From assembly GCA_043804895.1 (NCBI GenBank), contig JAZDIN010000052.1:1-34570 (forward strand): a stretch of DNA of 34,570 bases. The letters run 5' to 3'. Each line of letters begins with the position of its first letter. The first letter of the stretch is position 1. Below are positions 27,753 through 34,442 of this stretch, piece after piece. The stretch is from Candidatus Altiarchaeota archaeon (GTDB lineage: Archaea > Altiarchaeota > Altiarchaeia > IMC4 > SCGC-AAA252-I15). Below the pieces are notes generated by a model, which was not told the origin of the DNA, did no database searches, and saw nothing but the letters and a program-made list of their open reading frames with translations. A program made the position numbers and the translations under genes.

Positions 27753-29464
27753 AAAAAAATATCGTCCGGCGAATCCACCTGGGGCTTATACTAGCATCCG
27801 CAGCCGTCCTCATAGCCTCGACATACCTTGCATATGACAACAGTGAGGCGTTCAAGGTCGTCAACACCATGTACTCGAAAGACGGCAGGAGCTTCAGGCC
27901 AGCGAACCTGCCATTCTTCATCGATGACGGGTACTTTCTAGTAAATTTCACCACAAACAGGGAAAAACTAAGCCTAGTATTCTTCGCTAAAGACTGCATA
28001 GAGGATGGTCTGCTAAATGGCCAGAGATTCTATCACGGTGACTGCAGCCGTTGCAAGCATTGCAGGGGCGTCAAGGGCACCGGCATCTTCAACCAGACCG
28101 AACGGAAATGGAACACACTGGTCATAAAGACAAGGGCCCTCGAGGGGATACCCCTCTTCTTTGTTGAAAACGAGGATACTGGTGTTCTATGGCGTTTTCT
28201 GGCATACGCCTCGGCTTCGACGCTGATGGCCTTACTACTCCTCTGGTACCTGGGAAAAGACATCATGCAAACACTTGAGAAAACAATATCATGGGTCAAG
28301 AAAAACAAGGGGATAACCCTACTGCTCACCTTATCCTTCACCATCTCGATGCTTCTCGCCCCAATCGGCCAGAAATCAACAGACGTTGACGGCTGGATTA
28401 TCCGCGCCGAGAACATAATACACAAGACTGATTGGACCTTCACCAAAACCGAACCTGACTATTTTGTCAACGAGCATTTCAACATGGCCAAGCCGCCTGG
28501 AGCGTACCTCTACGAGTTCATAATCCTTCGTCTGCTCTTCGGCTTCAACCACATATACGCCCAAACACTCGTGAAACTGCCGCCCATAATAGGCAACCTA
28601 ATACTGTGTTATCTGATCTGGTCCATTCTCAGCTCGAGGCTGAAGGACAGGAGAACCCCGCTCATTGCCGCGGCTGCGTATGCCCTAAACCCTGTCGTCA
28701 TATTCCAGGCTGCAGTACTCGGCAAACACGATGCCCTCACCTTAGCGCTCGTCCTTTTGGCTTTGAGGAATCTCAGCAAGCGGCGTTTCTCCATATACTA
28801 CGGGCTTTCCCTAGTCACAAAGCAGTTGCCTCTGTTCTTCCTTCCATGGCTTTTAATCCAGAAGCGGATGGTACGGCAGTTGCTTGCAGCGCTCGTCATA
28901 CCCTTACTCATATTCTCCCCGTACCTACTGGACGACCCGGTATTCTTCATCAACCGCCTGGTTAAGACGCACACGGAGAGGGAGCCTTTCGAGCTGACAT
29001 GGATGGTCAACCTGAAGGATTGGGGCGTCAGCAACACAGCCCTTGTGAGCGAACTAGTCCTGTTCCTCTACTTTGCGCTGGTGCTCATCATATCAGTCGG
29101 GATGAGGGACGAGCCGTACGTCATCGCCGCGGCGATATTCTCCCTCTTCATCGCATTGAACAAATCCGTGCTGGAGCAGTACATCATGTGGTCCATGCTG
29201 TTCCTGCTGCTCGTTTACTTCATAAAAGGTAACAGGCTCGCAGGATTCACATACCTCATCGGCACATTCACCTGCATCATAAGCCATGAAGGCGAGAATC
29301 TACTACCAAAGGACTTAATCAACCAGTGGACAATCGTCCTGGCGCTGATATACCTAACAACCGCCGCAACCATCATCATGAGCTCATTCAGAATAGAAAA
29401 CGTAAGGGAATCAATTGGCGGATGGCTCACCTACGCCAACATTAAAAGGCGAAAATCCCGCTAG
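27749..29464 (+). CDS. GT-C-fold membrane glycosyltransferase, paralog of 23932..25629
   Basis: Colinear similarity with the first copy, including the identical block KPPGAYLYEFIILRLLFGFNHIY. Confidence 0.75.
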   Translation: MKKNIVRRIHLGLILASAAVLIASTYLAYDNSEAFKVVNTMYSKDGRSFRPANLPFFIDDGYFLVNFTTNREKLSLVFFAKDCIEDGLLNGQRFYHGDCSRCKHCRGVKGTGIFNQTERKWNTLVIKTRALEGIPLFFVENEDTGVLWRFLAYASASTLMALLLLWYLGKDIMQTLEKTISWVKKNKGITLLLTLSFTISMLLAPIGQKSTDVDGWIIRAENIIHKTDWTFTKTEPDYFVNEHFNMAKPPGAYLYEFIILRLLFGFNHIYAQTLVKLPPIIGNLILCYLIWSILSSRLKDRRTPLIAAAAYALNPVVIFQAAVLGKHDALTLALVLLALRNLSKRRFSIYYGLSLVTKQLPLFFLPWLLIQKRMVRQLLAALVIPLLIFSPYLLDDPVFFINRLVKTHTEREPFELTWMVNLKDWGVSNTALVSELVLFLYFALVLIISVGMRDEPYVIAAAIFSLFIALNKSVLEQYIMWSMLFLLLVYFIKGNRLAGFTYLIGTFTCIISHEGENLLPKDLINQWTIVLALIYLTTAATIIMSSFRIENVRESIGGWLTYANIKRRKSR

Positions 29465-29865
29465 GCGAAGACCTTCTTCTTATAGGTGAGGTATTTGAGT
29501 ATGAACAGTGTGCCTGAAACAACCGTGATGGAAACCACGTAATGCAGGCCGATATACTCTGTGAAGACCTTCACTAAGAAAGTGTTAGCTAGGGTGAATG
29601 ACGCGAGGACCGCCAAGTACCTTACGAACCTGCTCCCAACCCTCCCCCTAGCATCGAATATCCACTTCAGCGACAGCATGAAATTAAAGACGACTGCAAC
29701 CGACATGGACAGCAGGTATGCGGCCAGATAATAAATGCCAATATACTCCGTGAGACAGTAGGTTAGAAGCACAACCAGTGGATAGGTTATAATAGCGTTC
29801 AACAGATACTTCAGAAACTTCGCCGACAACAAGTCCCCCACCAAGTTAGAAAGTCTAGCTTTCAT
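29461..29865 (-). CDS. GtrA-family lipid-linked sugar translocase
   Basis: KFLKY, four TM helices, NF..S.KWIF, K.VF end. Start moved to ATG 29865. Confidence 0.85.
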   Translation of the reverse strand: MKARLSNLVGDLLSAKFLKYLLNAIITYPLVVLLTYCLTEYIGIYYLAAYLLSMSVAVVFNFMLSLKWIFDARGRVGSRFVRYLAVLASFTLANTFLVKVFTEYIGLHYVVSITVVSGTLFILKYLTYKKKVFA

Positions 29866-29908
29866 GAGAATAATACTGAAAAGAGTGTTTTGCGATGGGG
29901 TTGCCCTG

Positions 29909-29966
29909 GAGCCTTTACTAAAGGCTCGCGAAATGAGGGACTTCCGCTTACACTCCAGTCCCTCTG
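29909..29966. repeat. Two-hairpin element, copy A, between 24-bp direct repeats (29885-29908 and 29983-30006)
   Basis: GAGCCTTT-ACT-AAAGGCTC-GCGAA-AT-GAGGGACT...AGTCCCTC-TG. Flanking repeats are 22/24 identical. Confidence 0.7.
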
Positions 29967-29980
29967 AATGTGACATGTGA

Positions 29981-30148
29981 AGGTGTTTTGCGGTGGGGTT
30001 GGCCTGCGGTCACCCCGGGTGGGAGATCATCACTTCTCCCTGCGAACCTTGTAGGGTTCTGGTCGTGCAGGGGCCGTTTCCACCGCAATGTAGCCTTGCC
30101 TCTTGACGCACTCCGTTCACTAGTCGCGGAGGCCTTCGCAGGCAGGCT
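29981..30148 (-). ncRNA. Candidate two-hairpin box H/ACA guide RNA
   Basis: TTTTAA box at 30171-30176. Two hairpins, each with an internal pocket, an apical K-loop or K-turn (CGA...GUGA), and an ACA just after the stem (30089-30091 and 29984-29986). Spacing from upper stem to ACA is 14 nt in hairpin 2. Confidence 0.72.
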
Positions 30149-30186
30149 TTTTATTACGGGTAATCGGAGGTTAAAAGCGTGTGGTG

Positions 30187-31566
30187 TCAGAAGTAGATGT
30201 CCCGTTCCCCCTCTTCGACTCTTTTGAGGCGGTTTTTAGTTTCTTTCCGGGTTTTTTCGTCGGTTATCTCCTTTGTGTACCTTTCAAGTATCTTTTCGCC
30301 TAGTTTTTTGTTCTCGTCTGAGGCGTAGTCCATAAGGTATTCCTTGAACGTTAGGAGCGCGTTCGGCCTGCAAAGTTCGTGTATGTTCCCTGGTTTCGCG
30401 AGTTCCATGAAATGTTTCCCTGTGCGGCCTTTGCGGTAGCATGCTGTGCAGAAGCTTGGGAGGAGGTTGTTTTCAAGCATGGCTTGTATCAGCTCCTCAA
30501 CTGTCCTCTTGTCTGCCGTGTGGAATTGCGTTAGTTCCTCTTTTTTTCCGTAGCCTCCTGGGGATGTCCTGGAGGCTGCGGACGTCTGTGATATGCCTAT
30601 CTTAAAGGCTTTCGTCCTGGTTTCCTCACTTTCCCTAGTGGAGATTATCATCCCAGTGTAGGGGACTGCCATCCTGAGTATGGCGATTACCTTCAGAAGT
30701 TCATCCTCAGTGACTGGGTGGGGTGGTTTCTTATACCTGACTGTGTCTGCTGGCTGCCAGCGTGGCACAGAGAACGTGTGCGGGCCGACTCCGTATTTTC
30801 TGTCGAGGTATTGTGCGTGTGACACTAGGGCGAGCACTTCGAACCTGTAGTCGTAGAGTCCGAAGAGGACTCCAAGTCCTACGTCGTCTATGCCTGCCTT
30901 GAACGCCCTGTCGTGGGCGAACAGTTGCCGCTCGTAATCTGCTTTCGGGCCCTTATGTATTCTCTCATATGTCTTGCGATGGTATGTCTCCTGGAATAGC
31001 TGGTAGGTGCCTATTCCAGCCTCCTTGAGTTTCCTGTAGTCCTCTACTTCTGTGGCTGCGATGTTGACGTTCACCCTCCTTATCTCCCCCTTGCCTGACT
31101 TGGTTGCGTATATTGTCTTGATAACGTCCACGACATAGTCTATCGGATTCATCTCATGGTCTTCGCCGAATTCTAGTAGCAGTCTCTTGTGTCCCATGTC
31201 CTCCAGCACCCTCACCTGCTCCTCCACCTCCTTGAGTGTCAGTTTTTTTCGCGGAGTTTGGTTGCTTGCGTGGAAGCCGCAGTATTCGCAGTCGTTGACG
31301 CAGAAGCTGGAGACGTAGAGGGGGGCGAAGAAGACGAGGCGTTCACCGTATATCTCGTCCTTTATTTTTGAGGCTGTCTTGTGCATCTCAGCTATAAGCT
31401 TAGGGTCTGTCGTGTTCAGCAGGCAGGCCACATCCTCAAGGTCGAGTCCCTTCTTCTTCGCTGCTTTCTTAAGTATCTTTTTTATCCTCTCCTCGGAGGG
31501 TTCCCTAGTATCCTTAAGTAGCCTGTTGATCTTACCCTCGTCAACGACATCCTTGACGTTAAGCAT
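30187..31566 (-). CDS. hydG: HydG-like radical SAM tyrosine lyase ([FeFe]-hydrogenase maturase family)
   Basis: FAPLYVSSFCVNDCEYCGF, IRRVNVN, GIGTYQLFQETY, GPHTFSVPR, and the C-terminal CTAC-X22-C auxiliary-cluster motif that ThiH lacks. Confidence 0.9.
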   Translation of the reverse strand: MLNVKDVVDEGKINRLLKDTREPSEERIKKILKKAAKKKGLDLEDVACLLNTTDPKLIAEMHKTASKIKDEIYGERLVFFAPLYVSSFCVNDCEYCGFHASNQTPRKKLTLKEVEEQVRVLEDMGHKRLLLEFGEDHEMNPIDYVVDVIKTIYATKSGKGEIRRVNVNIAATEVEDYRKLKEAGIGTYQLFQETYHRKTYERIHKGPKADYERQLFAHDRAFKAGIDDVGLGVLFGLYDYRFEVLALVSHAQYLDRKYGVGPHTFSVPRWQPADTVRYKKPPHPVTEDELLKVIAILRMAVPYTGMIISTRESEETRTKAFKIGISQTSAASRTSPGGYGKKEELTQFHTADKRTVEELIQAMLENNLLPSFCTACYRKGRTGKHFMELAKPGNIHELCRPNALLTFKEYLMDYASDENKKLGEKILERYTKEITDEKTRKETKNRLKRVEEGERDIYF

Positions 31567-32863
31567 TCGCCTTCACCCCCAAGTCGGTAGGCGCACGCCC
31601 GAGCGAGTAGAGCAGCTTTAAAGTCTCCTTAATCTGATCTTCCGTGTCAGACGAGTTACTGTGGCCTGGGTATATGCTGTAGTACCGTCTGTGCGAAAGC
31701 GGAGTCAGATTAACCATCAGGGAGTTCCCGCCTGTTAAAAGGCCCCTGCGTCTGCAGTCGCCGCCCAAGGCTTCAAGCGCAGTTGTTACCAGGATTTTCG
31801 CCTGAGGGTCTGCGAGCCTGCTTACTGCAAGAGCCTTCAATACTGTGTCAACCTCAGGCGCGGGAGCGTCTGCCAGTGGCGTCTGGGGAGATGGTATGAA
31901 CGGGCCGAATGAGTACATCTCTGCTTTCAGCGACTTTGTTAAGAGTATGTCGTTGGCAATGTCCTCTTTAGTCTGCCCTGGCAGTCCGATCAGCGAGCCT
32001 GTGGCGACGACAAAGCCGAGTTTCACAGCGTATTCTATCGTCTTTATCCTATCCTTGAGCGTTGACTTAGAGCCTGCGTGCATCTTACTGTAGAGCCTCG
32101 GATTAGACGTCTCAAACCTCAGAAGCACACCCCTCGCCCCAGCCTCGTACATCTCCCTATAACAGTCTAAGTCTCTGGTGCCAACGCTCATGAACAATAG
32201 CACACCGCAGCGTTCCTTTATCCCCCTGATAATCTGAGCTAGAATCTCTGGAGTGTACCAGTCATCCTCCCCGGACTGCAGCACCAGCGCCCTGAATCCG
32301 TGAACATTCACCGCCTCAGCTGCTGCTTCGACTATCTCCTCCACGCTCATCCTATACCTCGGCAGTGTACTGTTGCCTTCCCTAATGCCGCAGTACAGGC
32401 AGTTGTTTCCGCAGTGATTCGAGAATTCTATGATGCCGTGGACGCAGCAGGAGTTCTTCAGACTCTCATGCCTCACCCTGTTCGCGCTGCTATAGAGGAA
32501 ACTCAACTCCTTCGGGTTGGTCGTATCCAACAGCTGCAGAATATCCTCCCTCTCCAATCCTCCCGCCTTAGCTTTCCCAATAATCCTGCTGAATCCCTCA
32601 CTAACCTTCTCAACACCAGCATTCTTCACCGTCTCCTCATCAAGCCGTTGCAGCTTGAAGAAAGCCTCCCTCCACAACTCCAACACATCCTTAGCTTCCT
32701 CTTCAGGCATCACTTGCACTACGAACCCGCCCTGCGCGTAGACGTAGTCCCCAGGATTCACGTTTCTTAGCTCATTCAACACGTTCCTGCGTTCCCCGAA
32801 GTAGTCGACGACCGCTGTCCTGCCTGCTACCTCAACGACCCTGCCAGGTATGGAATAGCACAT
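31559..32863 (-). CDS. HypC/HupF-like domain fused to a HydE-like radical SAM enzyme
   Basis: N-terminal MCYSIPGRVVEV...AVVDY.G..R.V...PGDYV...GF...EEEA, then IIEFSNHCGNNCLYCGIR, LQSGED, LLRFET, GPFIP..TPL, TTAL and YSIYPG. GGAGGT RBS before ATG 32863. Confidence 0.88.
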   Translation of the reverse strand: MCYSIPGRVVEVAGRTAVVDYFGERRNVLNELRNVNPGDYVYAQGGFVVQVMPEEEAKDVLELWREAFFKLQRLDEETVKNAGVEKVSEGFSRIIGKAKAGGLEREDILQLLDTTNPKELSFLYSSANRVRHESLKNSCCVHGIIEFSNHCGNNCLYCGIREGNSTLPRYRMSVEEIVEAAAEAVNVHGFRALVLQSGEDDWYTPEILAQIIRGIKERCGVLLFMSVGTRDLDCYREMYEAGARGVLLRFETSNPRLYSKMHAGSKSTLKDRIKTIEYAVKLGFVVATGSLIGLPGQTKEDIANDILLTKSLKAEMYSFGPFIPSPQTPLADAPAPEVDTVLKALAVSRLADPQAKILVTTALEALGGDCRRRGLLTGGNSLMVNLTPLSHRRYYSIYPGHSNSSDTEDQIKETLKLLYSLGRAPTDLGVKANA

Positions 32864-32864
32864 A

Positions 32865-34064
32865 CTATCCCCTACCTCCACCGTCGAAGACTTTGAGTGC
32901 GCAGTACTTACCGCACATGCTGCACTCCCCGCCTACCTTACGTTTCCCATGTTTGACTCCGACTTTCGGGTCCAACGCCAGCTTAAACATCCTGTTCCAG
33001 TCTAATTTTCTCCTCGCCCTACTCATCTCATCATCCCTGCCCCTATTCCCCAACTTCACAATGTCTGCCGCATGTGCAGCAATCTTCGAGGCGATAACCC
33101 CCTCATGGACGTCCTCCTCCGATGGGAGCCCAAGATGTTCGCTTGGAGTGACGTAACAGAGGAAGTCTGCGCCATACATCCCAGCCAAGGCCCCGCCAAT
33201 AGCTGAGGTGATATGGTCATGGCCTACTCCTATGTCAGTCACCAAAGGCCCGAGCACGTAAAACGGCGCATTATGGCATACGCTCTTCTGCAAACGCATA
33301 TTATACTCAATCTGATCCAAAGGCACATGACCCGGCCCCTCCACAATAACCTTCACACCCTGCTTCCAAGCTTTAGAAGTCAAATGGCCTAGCACCCTCA
33401 ACTCACTAAGCTGCGCACTGTCAGTCGCATCATGGATGCAACCCGGCCTCAAAGCGTCGCCGAGGCTGACAGTAACCTCATACTCAGCCAACACCTCCAT
33501 GATATCCCCAAAACCCGTGTAGAGCGGATTCTCAGCCTTATGCTTCAACATCCACGCGGCCAGGAAGCATCCGCCGCGGCTGGTGATGGGAATAATCCTC
33601 TTTTTAGCCCGCCTCACACCCTCCCTGGTCAAGCCCGCGTGGACTGTCATGAAATCCACCCCCTCACGGCACTGCAATTCAACCTCCCTCAGATAATCCT
33701 CTAAGGTGAAATCCAATCCATGCTCAGCATAAACCTGATAAATCGGGACAGTCCCGAAAGGAACCTTACTCCCCTTCAAAATAGCCTTCCTCAACCCCCT
33801 CGTGTCCCCGTCCACACTCAAATCCATCAACGTGTCAGCCCCGGCCTCCACAGCCGCCTTAGCCTTCCTCAACTCCTCCCTCAGGCCGCTACTACTCGGG
33901 GAAACACCGATGTTAGCGTTAACCTTAGTCGACACACCAGCGCCAATAGCAAGAGGATTGATGCCCCGGCGGGCATTCTTCACCAGAACCAGACTACCAT
34001 CACGCACACGCTTAGTTAACCTAGCCTTAGACACGCCCTCAACCTTAGCAACGTAATCCAACAT
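32865..34064 (-). CDS. thiC: Phosphomethylpyrimidine synthase (ThiC family)
   Basis: KVNANIG, GADTLMDLS, GTVPIYQ, SRGG, SLGDALRPG, EGPGH, PFYVLGP, CYVTPSEHL, CSMCGKYC. Confidence 0.92.
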   Translation of the reverse strand: MLDYVAKVEGVSKARLTKRVRDGSLVLVKNARRGINPLAIGAGVSTKVNANIGVSPSSSGLREELRKAKAAVEAGADTLMDLSVDGDTRGLRKAILKGSKVPFGTVPIYQVYAEHGLDFTLEDYLREVELQCREGVDFMTVHAGLTREGVRRAKKRIIPITSRGGCFLAAWMLKHKAENPLYTGFGDIMEVLAEYEVTVSLGDALRPGCIHDATDSAQLSELRVLGHLTSKAWKQGVKVIVEGPGHVPLDQIEYNMRLQKSVCHNAPFYVLGPLVTDIGVGHDHITSAIGGALAGMYGADFLCYVTPSEHLGLPSEEDVHEGVIASKIAAHAADIVKLGNRGRDDEMSRARRKLDWNRMFKLALDPKVGVKHGKRKVGGECSMCGKYCALKVFDGGGRG

Positions 34065-34120
34065 ACTCCCCAACTATTTAACGCAACCGGGTATATAATA
34101 AGACTCAAGCCCGCTTGGGG

Positions 34121-34176
34121 GAGCCTTGCTAAGGCTCGCGAAGGAGTCATCTTCGCCCTCGGGCTCGATGACTCTG
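34121..34176. repeat. Two-hairpin element, copy B, between 15-bp direct repeats (34106-34120 and 34217-34231)
   Basis: GAGCCTT-GCT-AAGGCTC-GCGAA-G-GAGTCATC...GATGACTC-TG. Flanking repeats are 14/15 identical. Confidence 0.7.
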
Positions 34177-34219
34177 GCGAATTTAACCTAACGTAACCTA
34201 TCAATATCAACAAAACCAA

Positions 34220-34442
34220 GCCCGCATGGGGTAGCGGATATCCTAGGAGGTTGCGGTGAACCGTCACGCCGCAAGGCAGAGGCGCACTCTGCCTGCGCAC
34301 GAAGAGCACGCTCTTCGTTGTGGTTCACGGGCGGGACGAATTGAGGGACCTACGGCCCCTCATGCATCTCACCCGAATGAACAGTTAAAAATCAGACGTT
34401 CGCAAACACCTCCAGACTCGGGTTCGAATCCCGATGCGGGCG
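34220..34442 (+). tRNA. tRNA-Arg(GCG) with a 151-nt intron at 37/38 (34257-34407)
   Basis: Acceptor GCCCGCA/TGCGGGC, D arm GGGT/ATCC, anticodon stem GGAGG/CCTCC with loop TT-GCG-G|A, T arm TCGGG-TTCGAAT-CCCGA. Strict BHB: TTGC/GCAA core, bulges GG|T and AC|A, outer helix GAAC/GTTC. CCA not encoded. Confidence 0.93.

Follow-up and report, generated by a model that had tools for sequence, protein, structure and literature searches.

A two-hairpin element of Altiarchaeota that borders tRNA and other genes, in many cases next to a second copy of the gene end

REP/BIME elements and REPINs of bacteria are mobilised by RAYT, an IS200-like Y1 HUH transposase, and REPs are not known to make long gene-end duplications. 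Integrative elements leave partial tRNA-gene repeats, attL and attR. Cas1-family integration prefers tRNA 3′ ends and produces long duplications, which measure 14–15 bp with casposons and equal the repeat with CRISPR spacers, and the tRNA-linked repeats of E. coli are classified as RtT (Rfam RF00391). Transposing bulge-helix-bulge (BHB) tRNA introns were reportedly described in Archaea by Fujishima and colleagues in 2010. Candidatus Altiarchaeum hamiconexum is reported to rank with the most MITE-dense archaeal genomes, at 146 per Mb (PMC11602168), and a tRNA-disruption model from Caldiarchaeum is set out in two further papers (PMC3293823; PMC3218864).

We analysed a window of 34,570 nucleotides of a Candidatus Altiarchaeota archaeon (assembly GCA_043804895.1, hereafter G000; contig JAZDIN010000052.1, positions 1–34,570), which contains two copies, A and B, of a family that we name R1. 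R1 is a non-coding two-hairpin element of 55–60 nt (about 60 bases), composed of hairpin 1 (N-AGCCTT/AAGGCT-N′), the sequence GCGAA, hairpin 2, in which a free 8-bp stem encloses a TTCGC...GCTC interior, and CTGA. Both window copies run from GAGCCTT-loop-AAGGCTC through GCGAA and a second hairpin to CTGA or CTGG, and their hairpin 2 stems are unlike yet paired (GAGGGACT/AGTCCCTC in copy A versus GAGTCATC/GATGACTC in copy B), exactly as an earlier note on this DNA had described. Single-strand folding of copies A and B on either strand gives z of −3.1 to −4.1 against 200 shuffles, with 0, 0, 0 and 2 shuffles per 200 folding equally well in the four copy/strand tests.

A covariance model trained on nine copies scores copies A and B, both in the training set, at E = 2.4e-15 and 6e-14, and recovers R1 copies absent from that set; in G000 it finds 13 copies at E<1e-7 and ~5 weaker ones. 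The stems covary: over 107 aligned matches, 92% of the stem cells pair, compared with at most 56% in slid controls, and 278 cells are changed on both sides versus 90 after shuffling, with none of 500 shuffles reaching 278. The single-stranded motifs GCGAA, TTCGC/GCTC and CTGA are kept across the order. Of the C box (RUGAUGA) and D box (CUGA) of a k-turn sRNA, R1 has the CTGA at its 3′ end and no C box; by eye, tandem G-A options occur on both strands and a canonical k-turn is absent. The stems hold 26 G-U versus 39 A-C pairs, i.e. no strand signal that would favour RNA over DNA structure. In the nine-copy alignment the ends, GAGCC... and ...CTGA, are mutually non-complementary, so that R1 has no terminal inverted repeats. 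No Rfam family matches the element at or near its gathering score, Rfam snoRNA models give no match above E = 3 in the region, and we found no published description of R1 in the literature searched.

Copy A spans 29909–29967 on the plus strand. Alignment and folding place hairpin 1, with a GAGCCTT/AAGGCTC stem and an A/T-rich loop, at 29909–29927 (nine-copy alignment), the conserved single-stranded linker GCGAA(AT) at 29928–29934, and hairpin 2, with its variable 8-bp stem, at 29935–29964; the interior of hairpin 2 reads TCCGC...CTCC versus the family consensus TTCGC...GCTC. The TGA of the conserved CTGA end and a 15-nt spacer occupy 29965–29982, and a conserved structured sRNA gene on the minus strand follows at 29983–30150. 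The 3′ end of this gene (29983–30006, X2(A)) is the functional copy of a 24-nt flank repeat, the displaced and decaying copy of which (29885–29908, X1(A)) abuts the GAGCC end with two mismatches. The last ~6 nt of the spacer (GTGAAG) resemble the native flank at the empty site described below, a likeness by which the duplication may reach ~30 nt. The sRNA is conserved in three congeners and five metagenome contigs, and it folds into a terminal stem of 9 bp with a loop reading GUGAUGA, ACA standing close to the 3′ end; it is H/ACA-like as read by eye, and Rfam gives it no name. The empty site that the earlier note had proposed to look for is found on metagenome contig L140, where, beside the same sRNA at 90% identity, neither R1 nor X1 separates the start of the neighbouring gene from the sRNA end. 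Copy A sits within the sRNA gene, 24 nt short of its 3′ end. A listed 171-aa open reading frame (29461–29976) passes through copy A and is a false extension.

Copy B (34121–34177, plus strand) was delimited by covariance model, alignment and fold, and comprises hairpin 1 (34121–34137), a GCGAAG linker (34138–34143), hairpin 2 with a TTCGCC..GGCTC interior (34144–34174) and a TGG end (34175–34177). A spacer (34178–34216), A-rich like other tRNA upstream regions of G000 and similar in its left part to the flank upstream of X1(B), leads to a plus-strand tRNA-Arg(GCG) gene with a 151-nt intron (34220–34442), the end coordinate of which comes from inspection of the acceptor stem by eye. X1(B) (34106–34120) is a displaced copy of X2(B) (34217–34231), i.e. 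of three leader bases and nucleotides 1–12 of tRNA-Arg, with one mismatch in 15 nt, and the similarity continues, weaker, to ~28 nt. The flank-repeat scores of A and B were matched by 0 of 200 and 0 of 100 shuffles in two shuffle runs, so the imperfect repeats first seen by the earlier note at the GAGCC ends (22 of 24 positions at A, 14 of 15 at B) stand, as does its observation that the element lies in opposite senses relative to the two RNA genes. Of the gene identities given there, tRNA-Arg was missed by a first ARAGORN run and by Rfam at gathering and was found once introns were allowed, whereas the H/ACA assignment is a reading by eye on which Rfam is silent. The tRNA-Arg orthologues of the related genomes G001 and G003 are intron-less; that of G001 lacks R1, while that of G003 carries two tandem R1 units and has 27 duplicated tRNA nucleotides, compared with 12 in G000.

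A scan of the genome and its relatives with the covariance model revealed further copies in G000 and gave hits in 24 of the 41 related genomes, every one of them a member of a single order of Altiarchaeota. Phylum-wide, R1 is present in 19 of 61 genomes, all 19 in the order of G000, and in 0 of 12 outside it. The assemblies are incomplete (57–97% complete), matches per genome range from 0 to 24, and the sites vary among congeners. At least 12 different targets are occupied in one genome. In genome G036, tandem arrays combine R1 with two further hairpin modules, and numerous contigs end within these arrays.

In 33 of 98 copies tested, the GAGCC end adjoins a duplicated flank of 12–155 bp (score ≥24, at most 2 nt away). 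Eight of the 33 belong to G036, some of them due to the tandem arrays, and about half of the R1 copies have no duplicated segment. The whole insert measures 52–82 nt in 21 of the 33 cases and is gene-free. Targets include the start of RLI/ABCE1 and the 3′ ends of other protein genes, and the intact gene lies on the CTGA side in all eight protein-gene cases examined. Specifically, 7, 50 and 155 nt of RLI/ABCE1 coding sequence are duplicated in G000, G001 and G003, respectively, and in all three species the frame from the displaced start codon crosses R1 and stops at the real start codon, a layout that hints at possible translational coupling. Displaced flank copies have decayed with indels in several tRNA cases; the 5S rRNA, tRNA-Val, tRNA-Phe and G003 tRNA-Arg genes have tandem units, with a gene-end copy in front of each; and the tail of one young insert has no second occurrence in its genome.

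These flanks contradict the alternative of the earlier note that R1 is a constant RNA scaffold with a locus-specific guide that pairs with the neighbouring RNA. The segment at the GAGCC end does match the nearby gene, but it is sense at tRNA genes and ABCE1 and antisense at the sRNA, RNase P and 3′-end cases, and with senses so mixed neither strand of R1 carries a consistent guide. In addition, the segment can consist of as much as 155 nt of coding sequence, decays with indels, and is missing from all 14 tested copies that trail a tRNA, and we now regard a guide as very improbable.

R1 has a strong tie to tRNA genes. According to ARAGORN, 15 copies follow a tRNA of their own strand by 2–3 nt, 16 precede one of their own strand by 15–67 nt, two lie within predicted tRNA introns and five are on the opposite strand, so that the element is co-oriented with the tRNA in 33 of 38 cases. 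Among the 15 copies behind tRNA 3′ ends, none of the 14 testable ones has a duplicated tRNA end, whereas of the 16 upstream copies ten have a duplication by script, two more weakly and two more by eye. The earlier expectation of long target duplications thus holds for a third of the copies tested, with no fixed length, and fails behind tRNA 3′ ends. Another R1 lies ~6 nt behind a 5S rRNA gene (Rfam call), resembling RtT, whose units also stand behind tRNA genes with copies of the tRNA 3′ end, as R1 does at the 5S rRNA and tRNA-Val loci; R1 differs from RtT in having no Rfam match and in being found as well before genes, within an intron and beside protein genes. An ordinary terminator family was considered and rejected, since the element itself lacks a T run, 16 copies precede tRNAs, one lies in an intron confirmed by Rfam and one within an RNase P RNA.

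The intron-borne copy is found on contig L117, where positions 423–568 are spanned by the Rfam tRNA model (1–71) with a 76-nt insert that contains R1. The insert is an anticodon-loop intron, in which CTGT pairs, by eye, with GCAG beside the anticodon stem, and in our own reading the first base of R1 is at the 5′ splice site. A second tRNA intron with R1, on contig L040, is based on ARAGORN and a reading by eye, and Rfam gave no confirmation. R1 is thereby reminiscent of BHB introns, being a module that occurs within an anticodon-loop intron and beside other tRNAs. Most copies, however, flank genes, show duplications at the DNA level and can be on either strand relative to their neighbours, which means that the movement of R1 is not confined to spliceable RNA positions. 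Copies A and B themselves are outside the mature RNAs and hence not intron-placed.

The link with tRNAs raises the alternative that R1 acts mainly as a structured RNA with a function, transcribed along with stable RNAs in the form of a tRNA 3′ trailer, 5′ leader or intron. RNase Z, RNase P or the splicing endonuclease would release it and a protein would bind it, the duplications being by-products of recombination at such active loci. This is favoured by the co-orientation, by T runs that come after R1 and not after the tRNA at several loci (e.g. the C2 tandem pair, and C48), by the conserved single-stranded motifs, and by RNase P RNA, whose P3 hairpin shares the form of hairpin 1 in G000, G002 and G006. 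Furthermore, the tRNA-Ala(GGC)-R1 and tRNA-Pro(GGG)-R1 arrangements are common to two genera, with stems that differ and still pair, which looks like in-place selection on the fold and would make a host function possible. R1 also occurs, however, in antisense orientation downstream of the sRNA and RNase P RNA genes, and downstream of protein genes on the minus strand; its numbers and positions change between congeners, the G036 arrays break contigs, and there is neither a G-U strand bias nor an Rfam family nor, by eye, a canonical C box or k-turn. We consider a co-transcribed RNA module unlikely, albeit the strongest of the rivals.

A mobilising enzyme was sought among Y1, tyrosine recombinase, RVT_1, Cas1 and TnpB families, with no match in G000, G001 or G004. 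Tyrosine recombinase (PF00589) has one match in G003 and four in G036. Cas1 (PF01867) occurs only in G036 among five genomes and is absent from G000, G001, G003 and G004, and reverse transcriptase (PF00078), which a SINE-like retroposed element would need, has no match in any of the five, which are 81–92% complete. Thus, of the enzyme kinds that the earlier note had listed, none was found in three genomes of the genus, and a single tyrosine-recombinase match in a fourth. Across the 41 genomes, Y1 (PF01797) and R1 occur together in seven, R1 alone in 17, Y1 alone in seven and neither in ten, so Y1 transposase is unrelated to the presence of R1. Because the assemblies are incomplete, a missing enzyme is weak evidence.

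R1 resembles REP/BIME elements in being a short non-coding hairpin element with a conserved foot and free stems, extragenic at gene ends and present many times per genome, and in forming mosaic tandem arrays with small motifs, as in G036. It differs from them in having no RAYT/Y1 gene in G000, G001, G003 and G004, two unlike hairpins, the tie to tRNAs and long gene-end duplications. Like a MITE, R1 is small, non-autonomous and multi-copy, with direct target repeats and insertion polymorphism between relatives; unlike one, it has no terminal inverted repeats, its duplications range over 12–155 bp and are missing at tRNA 3′ ends, and the search of G000, G001 and G004 for Y1, TnpB, tyrosine recombinase, Cas1 and RT gave no parent transposase. 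Casposons and CRISPR spacers share with R1 long target duplications and a preference for tRNA 3′ ends, but the four genomes of the genus have no Cas1, the duplication length varies more than tenfold and the ends are not inverted repeats.

R1 could also be the recombination site or scar of an integrase- or cassette-type system, each unit of which would carry the end of its target gene, much as integrative elements bring along the 3′ part of a tRNA, so that the two end copies would come from different lineages. As with att repeats and tRNA disruption, an intact gene stands beside a displaced fragment, with 5′ fragments upstream of a complete tRNA, and folded sites with free stems resemble integron attC sites. 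The tandem units, each after a gene-end copy, would fit such a system, and so would the coding duplications, the two copies of which differ by 30 synonymous versus 15 non-synonymous changes (in automatically chosen frames, one of them doubtful; 10:2, 7:0 and 5:2 in the three clearest cases), as expected of two once-functional alleles. This ratio is unlike the decay of a dead copy; it fits either recombination with element-free alleles that overwrites, or gene ends imported from a different lineage, and an overwriting of the displaced copy by element-free alleles would yield the same pattern with no cassette. The repeats, moreover, enclose in 21 of 33 cases a geneless 52–82 nt, far below the size of a double-stranded circle; the 12 or more targets in one genome would each require a matching element-borne copy; tyrosine recombinase has no match in G000, G001 and G004, three of the genus's four genomes with R1; and no full R1 occurs in a viral collection. 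We judge this scenario quite unlikely.

We favour instead the reading, to which we assign a probability of about 0.55, that R1 is an inserted DNA element rather than a guide, which enters gene ends in general and spares the gene by way of the duplicated end. The tiny mobile element that the earlier note had offered as one option, a small non-autonomous element with long target duplications, is supported by further copies, by the flank duplications in 33 of 98 cases, by the empty site of copy A and by presence and absence among congeners; its targets are not limited to RNA genes. Under this reading, copy A would have entered 24 nt inside the 3′ end of the sRNA gene and copy B after nucleotide 12 of tRNA-Arg, and the DNA between a point slightly beyond the gene and the site of insertion would have been doubled. 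This doubling would let the gene survive: the CTGA-side copy would stay attached to it and be conserved, with the GAGCC-side copy left behind. Where landing is presumably harmless, i.e. behind a tRNA or 5S rRNA, in a tRNA intron or in RNase P RNA, no duplication is seen. Against it, we found no enzyme, intermediate or donor copy, and duplication upon insertion would be expected at both kinds of site, yet it is found in 0 of 14 cases behind tRNA ends. The compensated stems that two genera share behind tRNA-Ala(GGC) and tRNA-Pro(GGG), and the synonymous excess in the coding duplications, also weigh against this reading.

Within the inserted-DNA reading, a minor share of our belief, a little under a third, goes to host replication or repair as the agent that copies R1 in where heavily transcribed genes begin or end. 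The gene end would be re-copied by template switching or by gap repair, in place of a dedicated transposase with a fixed staggered cut, and the conserved fold would be recognised by the copying process or by a trans-acting protein. A broader proposal, which we put forward as speculative and on balance improbable, is that R1 represents a transposase-free class of mobile structured modules that host replication, repair or RNA-processing machinery copies into borders and loops of genes under heavy transcription; the gene would be saved by its re-copied end or by splicing, and the modules would be the long-sought origin of new introns in archaeal tRNAs and would sometimes add helices to other RNAs, e.g. 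RNase P RNA.

Elements of this type break assemblies, hide tRNA genes from ARAGORN and Rfam, and produce falsely extended open reading frames. How introns arrive in archaeal tRNA genes is called an open question in a 2026 census of Asgard tRNA genes (bioRxiv 10.64898/2026.10.13.758758). Here a single module is found in several settings, in an anticodon-loop intron, behind tRNAs, within tRNA 5′ parts that a duplicated gene end rescues, and in an RNase P RNA, and R1 is a concrete, testable candidate for the incoming DNA of tRNA introns, with an empty site for one of the window copies. R1 also shows how a gene may survive an insertion in its own body, its end being present twice.

The window contains two copies of an element, R1, at 29909-29967 (copy A) and 34121-34177 (copy B). 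Hairpin 1 of both copies consists of GAGCCTT, a short A/T-rich loop and AAGGCTC, and is followed by a GCGAA linker. Hairpin 2 has an 8-bp stem, the sequence of which is unlike between the two copies but paired in both, and an interior of the form TTCGC(C)...(G)GCTC; the element ends with CTGA or CTGG. Reading of the sequence bore out every detail of this arrangement of a GAGCC hairpin, GCGAA and a second, unlike-but-paired hairpin, as described in the earlier note. On either strand, copies A and B fold better than nearly all of 200 shuffles.

Each copy has an imperfect repeat immediately left of its GAGCC end, with the partner sequence slightly right of the element, as the same note had it. 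The repeat at copy A (24 nt, 2 mismatches) corresponds to the 3′ end of a minus-strand sRNA gene (29983-30150), which has conserved counterparts in three congeners and in five metagenome contigs, has an H/ACA-like fold by eye and received no family name in an Rfam search. The repeat at copy B (15 nt, 1 mismatch) corresponds to three leader bases plus nucleotides 1-12 of tRNA-Arg(GCG), confirming the proposed match to this tRNA gene (34220-34442, plus strand), which ARAGORN detects only with introns allowed. The tRNA intron (34256-34406) is 151 nt long and contains several hairpins, and the orthologues in the congeners G001 and G003 are intronless; by this comparison the intron is probably a recent gain or loss inside the genus. 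A 171-aa open reading frame listed at 29461-29976 (minus strand) passes through copy A; it is an insertion artefact, since the likely start codon lies at 29863-29865, as at the empty site L140 described below.

A regular-expression search of the window's own genome, G000 (1.58 Mb, 71 contigs), yielded 8 copies of R1. The covariance-model scan of this genome and its relatives that had been proposed did find further copies: the model, built from 9 copies, gives 13 matches at E<1e-7 in G000, plus five that are weaker but appear genuine when read. Of 41 related genomes, 24 have matches, and the number per genome ranges from 0 to 24. Over the phylum, 19 of 61 genomes have a match; all 19 belong to the order of G000, and the 12 genomes from other orders have none. 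In a set of 107 matches from 82 loci, both helices covary, with 92% of cells paired and both-side changes at 12 of 15 pairs. Cells with both-side changes number 278, compared with 90 in shuffles, and none of 500 shuffles reaches as high a value. Controls with slid partners are at most 56% paired; fitting the alignment to the model favours structure, and the slid controls carry the same bias. Wobble pairs (26 G-U on the plus strand versus 39 A-C, equivalent to G-U on the minus strand) allow no call of the strand. By eye, the consensus fits neither a hammerhead nor a canonical k-turn, variants ACGAA, ACAAA and TCCGC are uncompensated and thus contradict a GCGAA/TTCGC pseudoknot, and hairpin 1 makes a weak anticodon arm, its loop being just 3-5 nt after T-A pairs form. 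The hairpin 1 loop is too far from the downstream tRNA (60-110 nt) to be its promoter TATA box.

For 17 of the 18 copies in G000, the distance to a stable-RNA gene, or to the start of the protein gene RLI/ABCE1, is no more than about 70 nt. Specifically, single copies directly follow tRNA-Met, tRNA-Pro(GGG), tRNA-Ala(GGC), tRNA-Gly(GCC) and 5S rRNA, and a tandem pair follows tRNA-Phe. Copies upstream of tRNA-Arg, tRNA-Phe, tRNA-Lys, tRNA-Ile and ABCE1 are abutted by a copy of the 5′ end of the gene, and one upstream of tRNA-Thr is without a gene-end copy. One copy each lies antisense behind the sRNA gene and RNase P RNA, with a copy of the 3′ end of the gene. Short arrays are located behind 5S rRNA and tRNA-Val, each unit being preceded by a copy of the RNA 3′ end. 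ARAGORN on all 107 matches places 15 at 2-3 nt after a tRNA and 16 at 15-67 nt upstream of one (both same strand), 5 within 70 nt of a tRNA on the opposite strand, and 2 inside a predicted tRNA intron. One intron case (L117:423-568) is confirmed by the Rfam tRNA model, which matches end to end around a 76-nt insert holding R1; the other (L040) rests on ARAGORN and reading by eye, with Rfam matching the T arm only. By eye, 16 junctions have no evident target consensus, and 2-3 of them have a possible microhomology (CAGGCT versus CAGCCT).

In RNase P RNA of G000 (C58:9820-10111, minus strand) and of the related genomes G002 and G006, the P3 hairpin has the form GARCC-TTT..AAA-GGYTC, the same as hairpin 1 of R1. 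Furthermore, RNase P RNA of G006 (L105:420-600, minus strand) holds a whole R1 in antisense, without duplication, with a further P3-like hairpin on one side and the conserved TGAGGAAGTTCC on the other. Hairpin 1 of R1 may have been taken over as P3.

R1 is inserted DNA. A suggested search for empty sites was successful: at locus L140, where the sRNA is 90% identical, 16 nt separate the start codon of the neighbouring gene from the sRNA end, and both the element and the second copy of the sRNA end are absent. In addition, tRNA-Arg of G001 is without the element, and tRNA-Arg of G003 has two tandem R1 units, the nearer of which duplicates 27 nt of the tRNA, compared with 12 in G000. At locus L067 of the congener G004 and the matching metagenome contig L121, a hairpin-rich insert of ~110 nt, different from R1, lies between duplicates (about 19 nt) of this sRNA 3′ end; more than one element family uses the site.

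To define the junction, we aligned 200 nt left of GAGCC with 400 nt right of the element for 98 full-length matches. A duplicated flank, with a best repeat score of at least 24 and ending within 2 nt of the GAGCC end, is present in 33 of 98, and the repeat ends exactly 0 nt from GAGCC in 25 of these; eight of the 33 are from one related genome, G036, and some are explained by neighbouring tandem modules rather than by target copies. The duplication is 12 to 155 bp long, and 21 of the 33 cases have 52-82 nt of DNA between the two gene-end copies. In the shortest cases the second copy follows right after CTGA, so the insert is essentially a core of 55-60 nt, sometimes with up to about 25 nt more. 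Every duplicated case has its complete gene on the CTGA side, and the duplicated stretch starts near a gene boundary: tRNA position +1 to about −25, a few bases before the ABCE1 start, or a stop codon. The earlier note's proposal of target duplications at RNA genes is supported, but not for RNA genes alone, as eight cases concern protein genes. Two of the eight are RLI/ABCE1 starts, with the first 50 nt (G001) or 155 nt (G003) duplicated, a shorter duplication being present at the same gene in G000; the other six are minus-strand gene ends, with the last 21-89 nt duplicated beside R1.

The two kinds of tRNA site differ. Among the 16 copies upstream of tRNAs, a tRNA 5′ fragment is found by script in 10 and more weakly in 2, and by eye in 2 more, which the script misread owing to their 55-nt insert in hairpin 1; the last 2 lack such a fragment. 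In contrast, none of the 14 testable copies directly behind tRNAs (of 15) is accompanied by a repeat of the tRNA end. Were a duplication part of every insertion, it would be expected at sites of either kind at similar ages; the displaced copies upstream of tRNAs, which abut the GAGCC end, are still visible at loci common to congeners. A fixed staggered cut is ruled out by this asymmetry together with the range of duplication lengths.

The RLI/ABCE1 locus bears signs of later change at the junction. G000, G001 and G003 have related R1 elements at the ABCE1 start and similar sequence from element to start codon, while the displaced copy comprises 7, 50 and 155 nt of coding sequence, respectively. 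In G003 the displaced copy and the gene have 1 difference in the 95 nt nearest the element and 11 in the farthest 60 nt. Over the coding duplications, with frames taken as the longest open frame (that of L104 being doubtful), the two copies differ by 30 synonymous, 15 non-synonymous and 1 non-coding changes; the clearest cases have synonymous:non-synonymous ratios of 10:2, 7:0 and 5:2. Decay of a dead copy in place would be expected to produce mostly non-synonymous changes. The synonymous excess fits recombination with element-free alleles in the population, which would keep overwriting the displaced copy, as this copy and the normal locus are collinear as far as the junction; it equally fits the arrival of one copy from another lineage together with the element.

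The frame from the displaced ABCE1 start codon reads through the whole element in G000 (L023), G001 (L102) and G003 (L042). Its stop lies 4 nt upstream of the real start codon in the first, overlaps that codon (ATGA) in the second and lies 1 nt upstream of it in the third. This arrangement suggests possible termination-reinitiation coupling. The ABCE1 frame of G000 is open for 140 codons only, which points to a frameshift or assembly error.

Several R1 copies carry or adjoin other modules. A two-hairpin module of ~52 nt (CCGAC..GTCGG, GTGTGTGT, CCGAGAC..GTCTCGG) interrupts hairpin 2 where the 5′ stem strand meets TTCGC in three G000 copies (C25:40206-40323, C30:697-815 and C48:4048-4165; loci L011, L013 and L009), at one spot, once reversed and without visible duplication; the copy on contig C2 has a different insert of ~50 nt there. 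In a subfamily (C11:54001-54130, C33:4800-4931 and C25:107592-107730; loci L021, L025 and L023), a ~55-nt insert with two small hairpins follows the sixth base of the hairpin 1 loop, so the model matches only the 3′ part of these copies. A second conserved module of ~70 nt (RCGTGAKATGCATTCG, a hairpin, AATTCGTTTCGGYGTGARC...), with GTGATAA-like and CTGA motifs, lies 0-75 nt past CTGA in four G000 copies (C24, C25, C48:3272 and C15), behind a tRNA or a tRNA 3′-end copy, and is possibly a small RNA or a further mobile module. In G036 (L078-L094), R1 forms tandem arrays with two other hairpin modules (GTGTGCTTGAGC..GCGAAACACAC and CCTCGGCAAACTCCGAG); the ends of at least six contigs fall within such arrays, indicating that the repeats break assembly.

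The earlier note had suggested looking for copies beside genes of mobilising enzymes. The families searched, Y1 HUH transposase (PF01797), tyrosine recombinase, RVT_1, Cas1 and TnpB zinc ribbon, have no match in G000, G001 or G004; the assemblies are 81-92% complete, and an enzyme gene may have escaped detection. A single integrase match is present in G003, and in G036 the counts are one for Y1, one for Cas1, four for integrase and five for TnpB. Across 41 genomes, 7 have both Y1 and R1, 17 R1 only, 7 Y1 only and 10 neither; the presence of Y1 is unrelated to that of R1. The lack of a tyrosine-recombinase match in three of four congeners is odd if a Xer-type recombinase is general in archaea, and may reflect the completeness of 81-92%.

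A search for a source copy found the 22-nt tail of a young G003 insert only once in that genome. We found no full R1 in the viral collection: its 30 pattern matches are close to the estimated chance number, and just 7 weak model matches (17-21 bits) all represent hairpin 1 plus GCGAA in other structure. Several viral contigs (L165, L166, L182, L183 and L191) share a different structured element, a CAGCC..GGCTG-GCGAA hairpin nested in a CCCGC/GCGGG stem, which is present at both ends, inverted, of one 5.3-kb contig. Locus L213, in a MAG titled Thermococcus sp., matches hairpin 1 plus GCGAAAGG exactly over 26 nt but has no hairpin 2; possible explanations are chance, mis-binning and a related module.

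We favour copy-in of R1 over a fixed-stagger transposase, because the GAGCC junction is exact, the CTGA side is loose, the length is variable and no enzyme was found. R1 would be copied in by replication or repair at heavily transcribed genes, where a nascent end would leave its template, copy R1 and resume behind the point of departure. The other reading offered for the two window copies, a constant scaffold with a locus-specific guide, fails on the sense, length and decay of the flank copies.

Of the nearest described kinds of element, REP/BIME, MITEs and the att repeats left by integrative elements each have defining features that R1 lacks. A fourth kind is the transposing BHB intron, whose position within an RNA gene is matched at L117 but not by the two window copies, which lie outside the mature RNAs. 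According to the accessible part of a MITE survey, the density of MITEs in Candidatus Altiarchaeum hamiconexum is very high; no R1-like element is described there (PMC11602168). Likewise, R1 is not the MITE-like C/D sRNA element of Pyrobaculum calidifontis, which, in the available text, is flanked by inverted repeats and lies far from genes (PMC6009581). Our literature search returned no account of such elements in Altiarchaeota, nor of hairpin elements with gene-end duplications in archaea. New here are the R1 model, the order-wide census, the empty site of copy A and the one-sided junction rule, as well as the 5′/3′ asymmetry, the synonymous pattern, the enzyme searches and the observations on RNase P and ABCE1.

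Our results fit a small, structure-defined element that enters the edges and tolerant spots of stable-RNA genes, with a gene hit internally staying intact because the stretch from boundary to insertion point is present twice. The arrangements tRNA-Ala(GGC)-R1 and tRNA-Pro(GGG)-R1 are common to G000 and G014, which belong to different genera, and pairing is retained in both although the stem sequences are unlike. The copies that trail tRNAs may have a function for the host.
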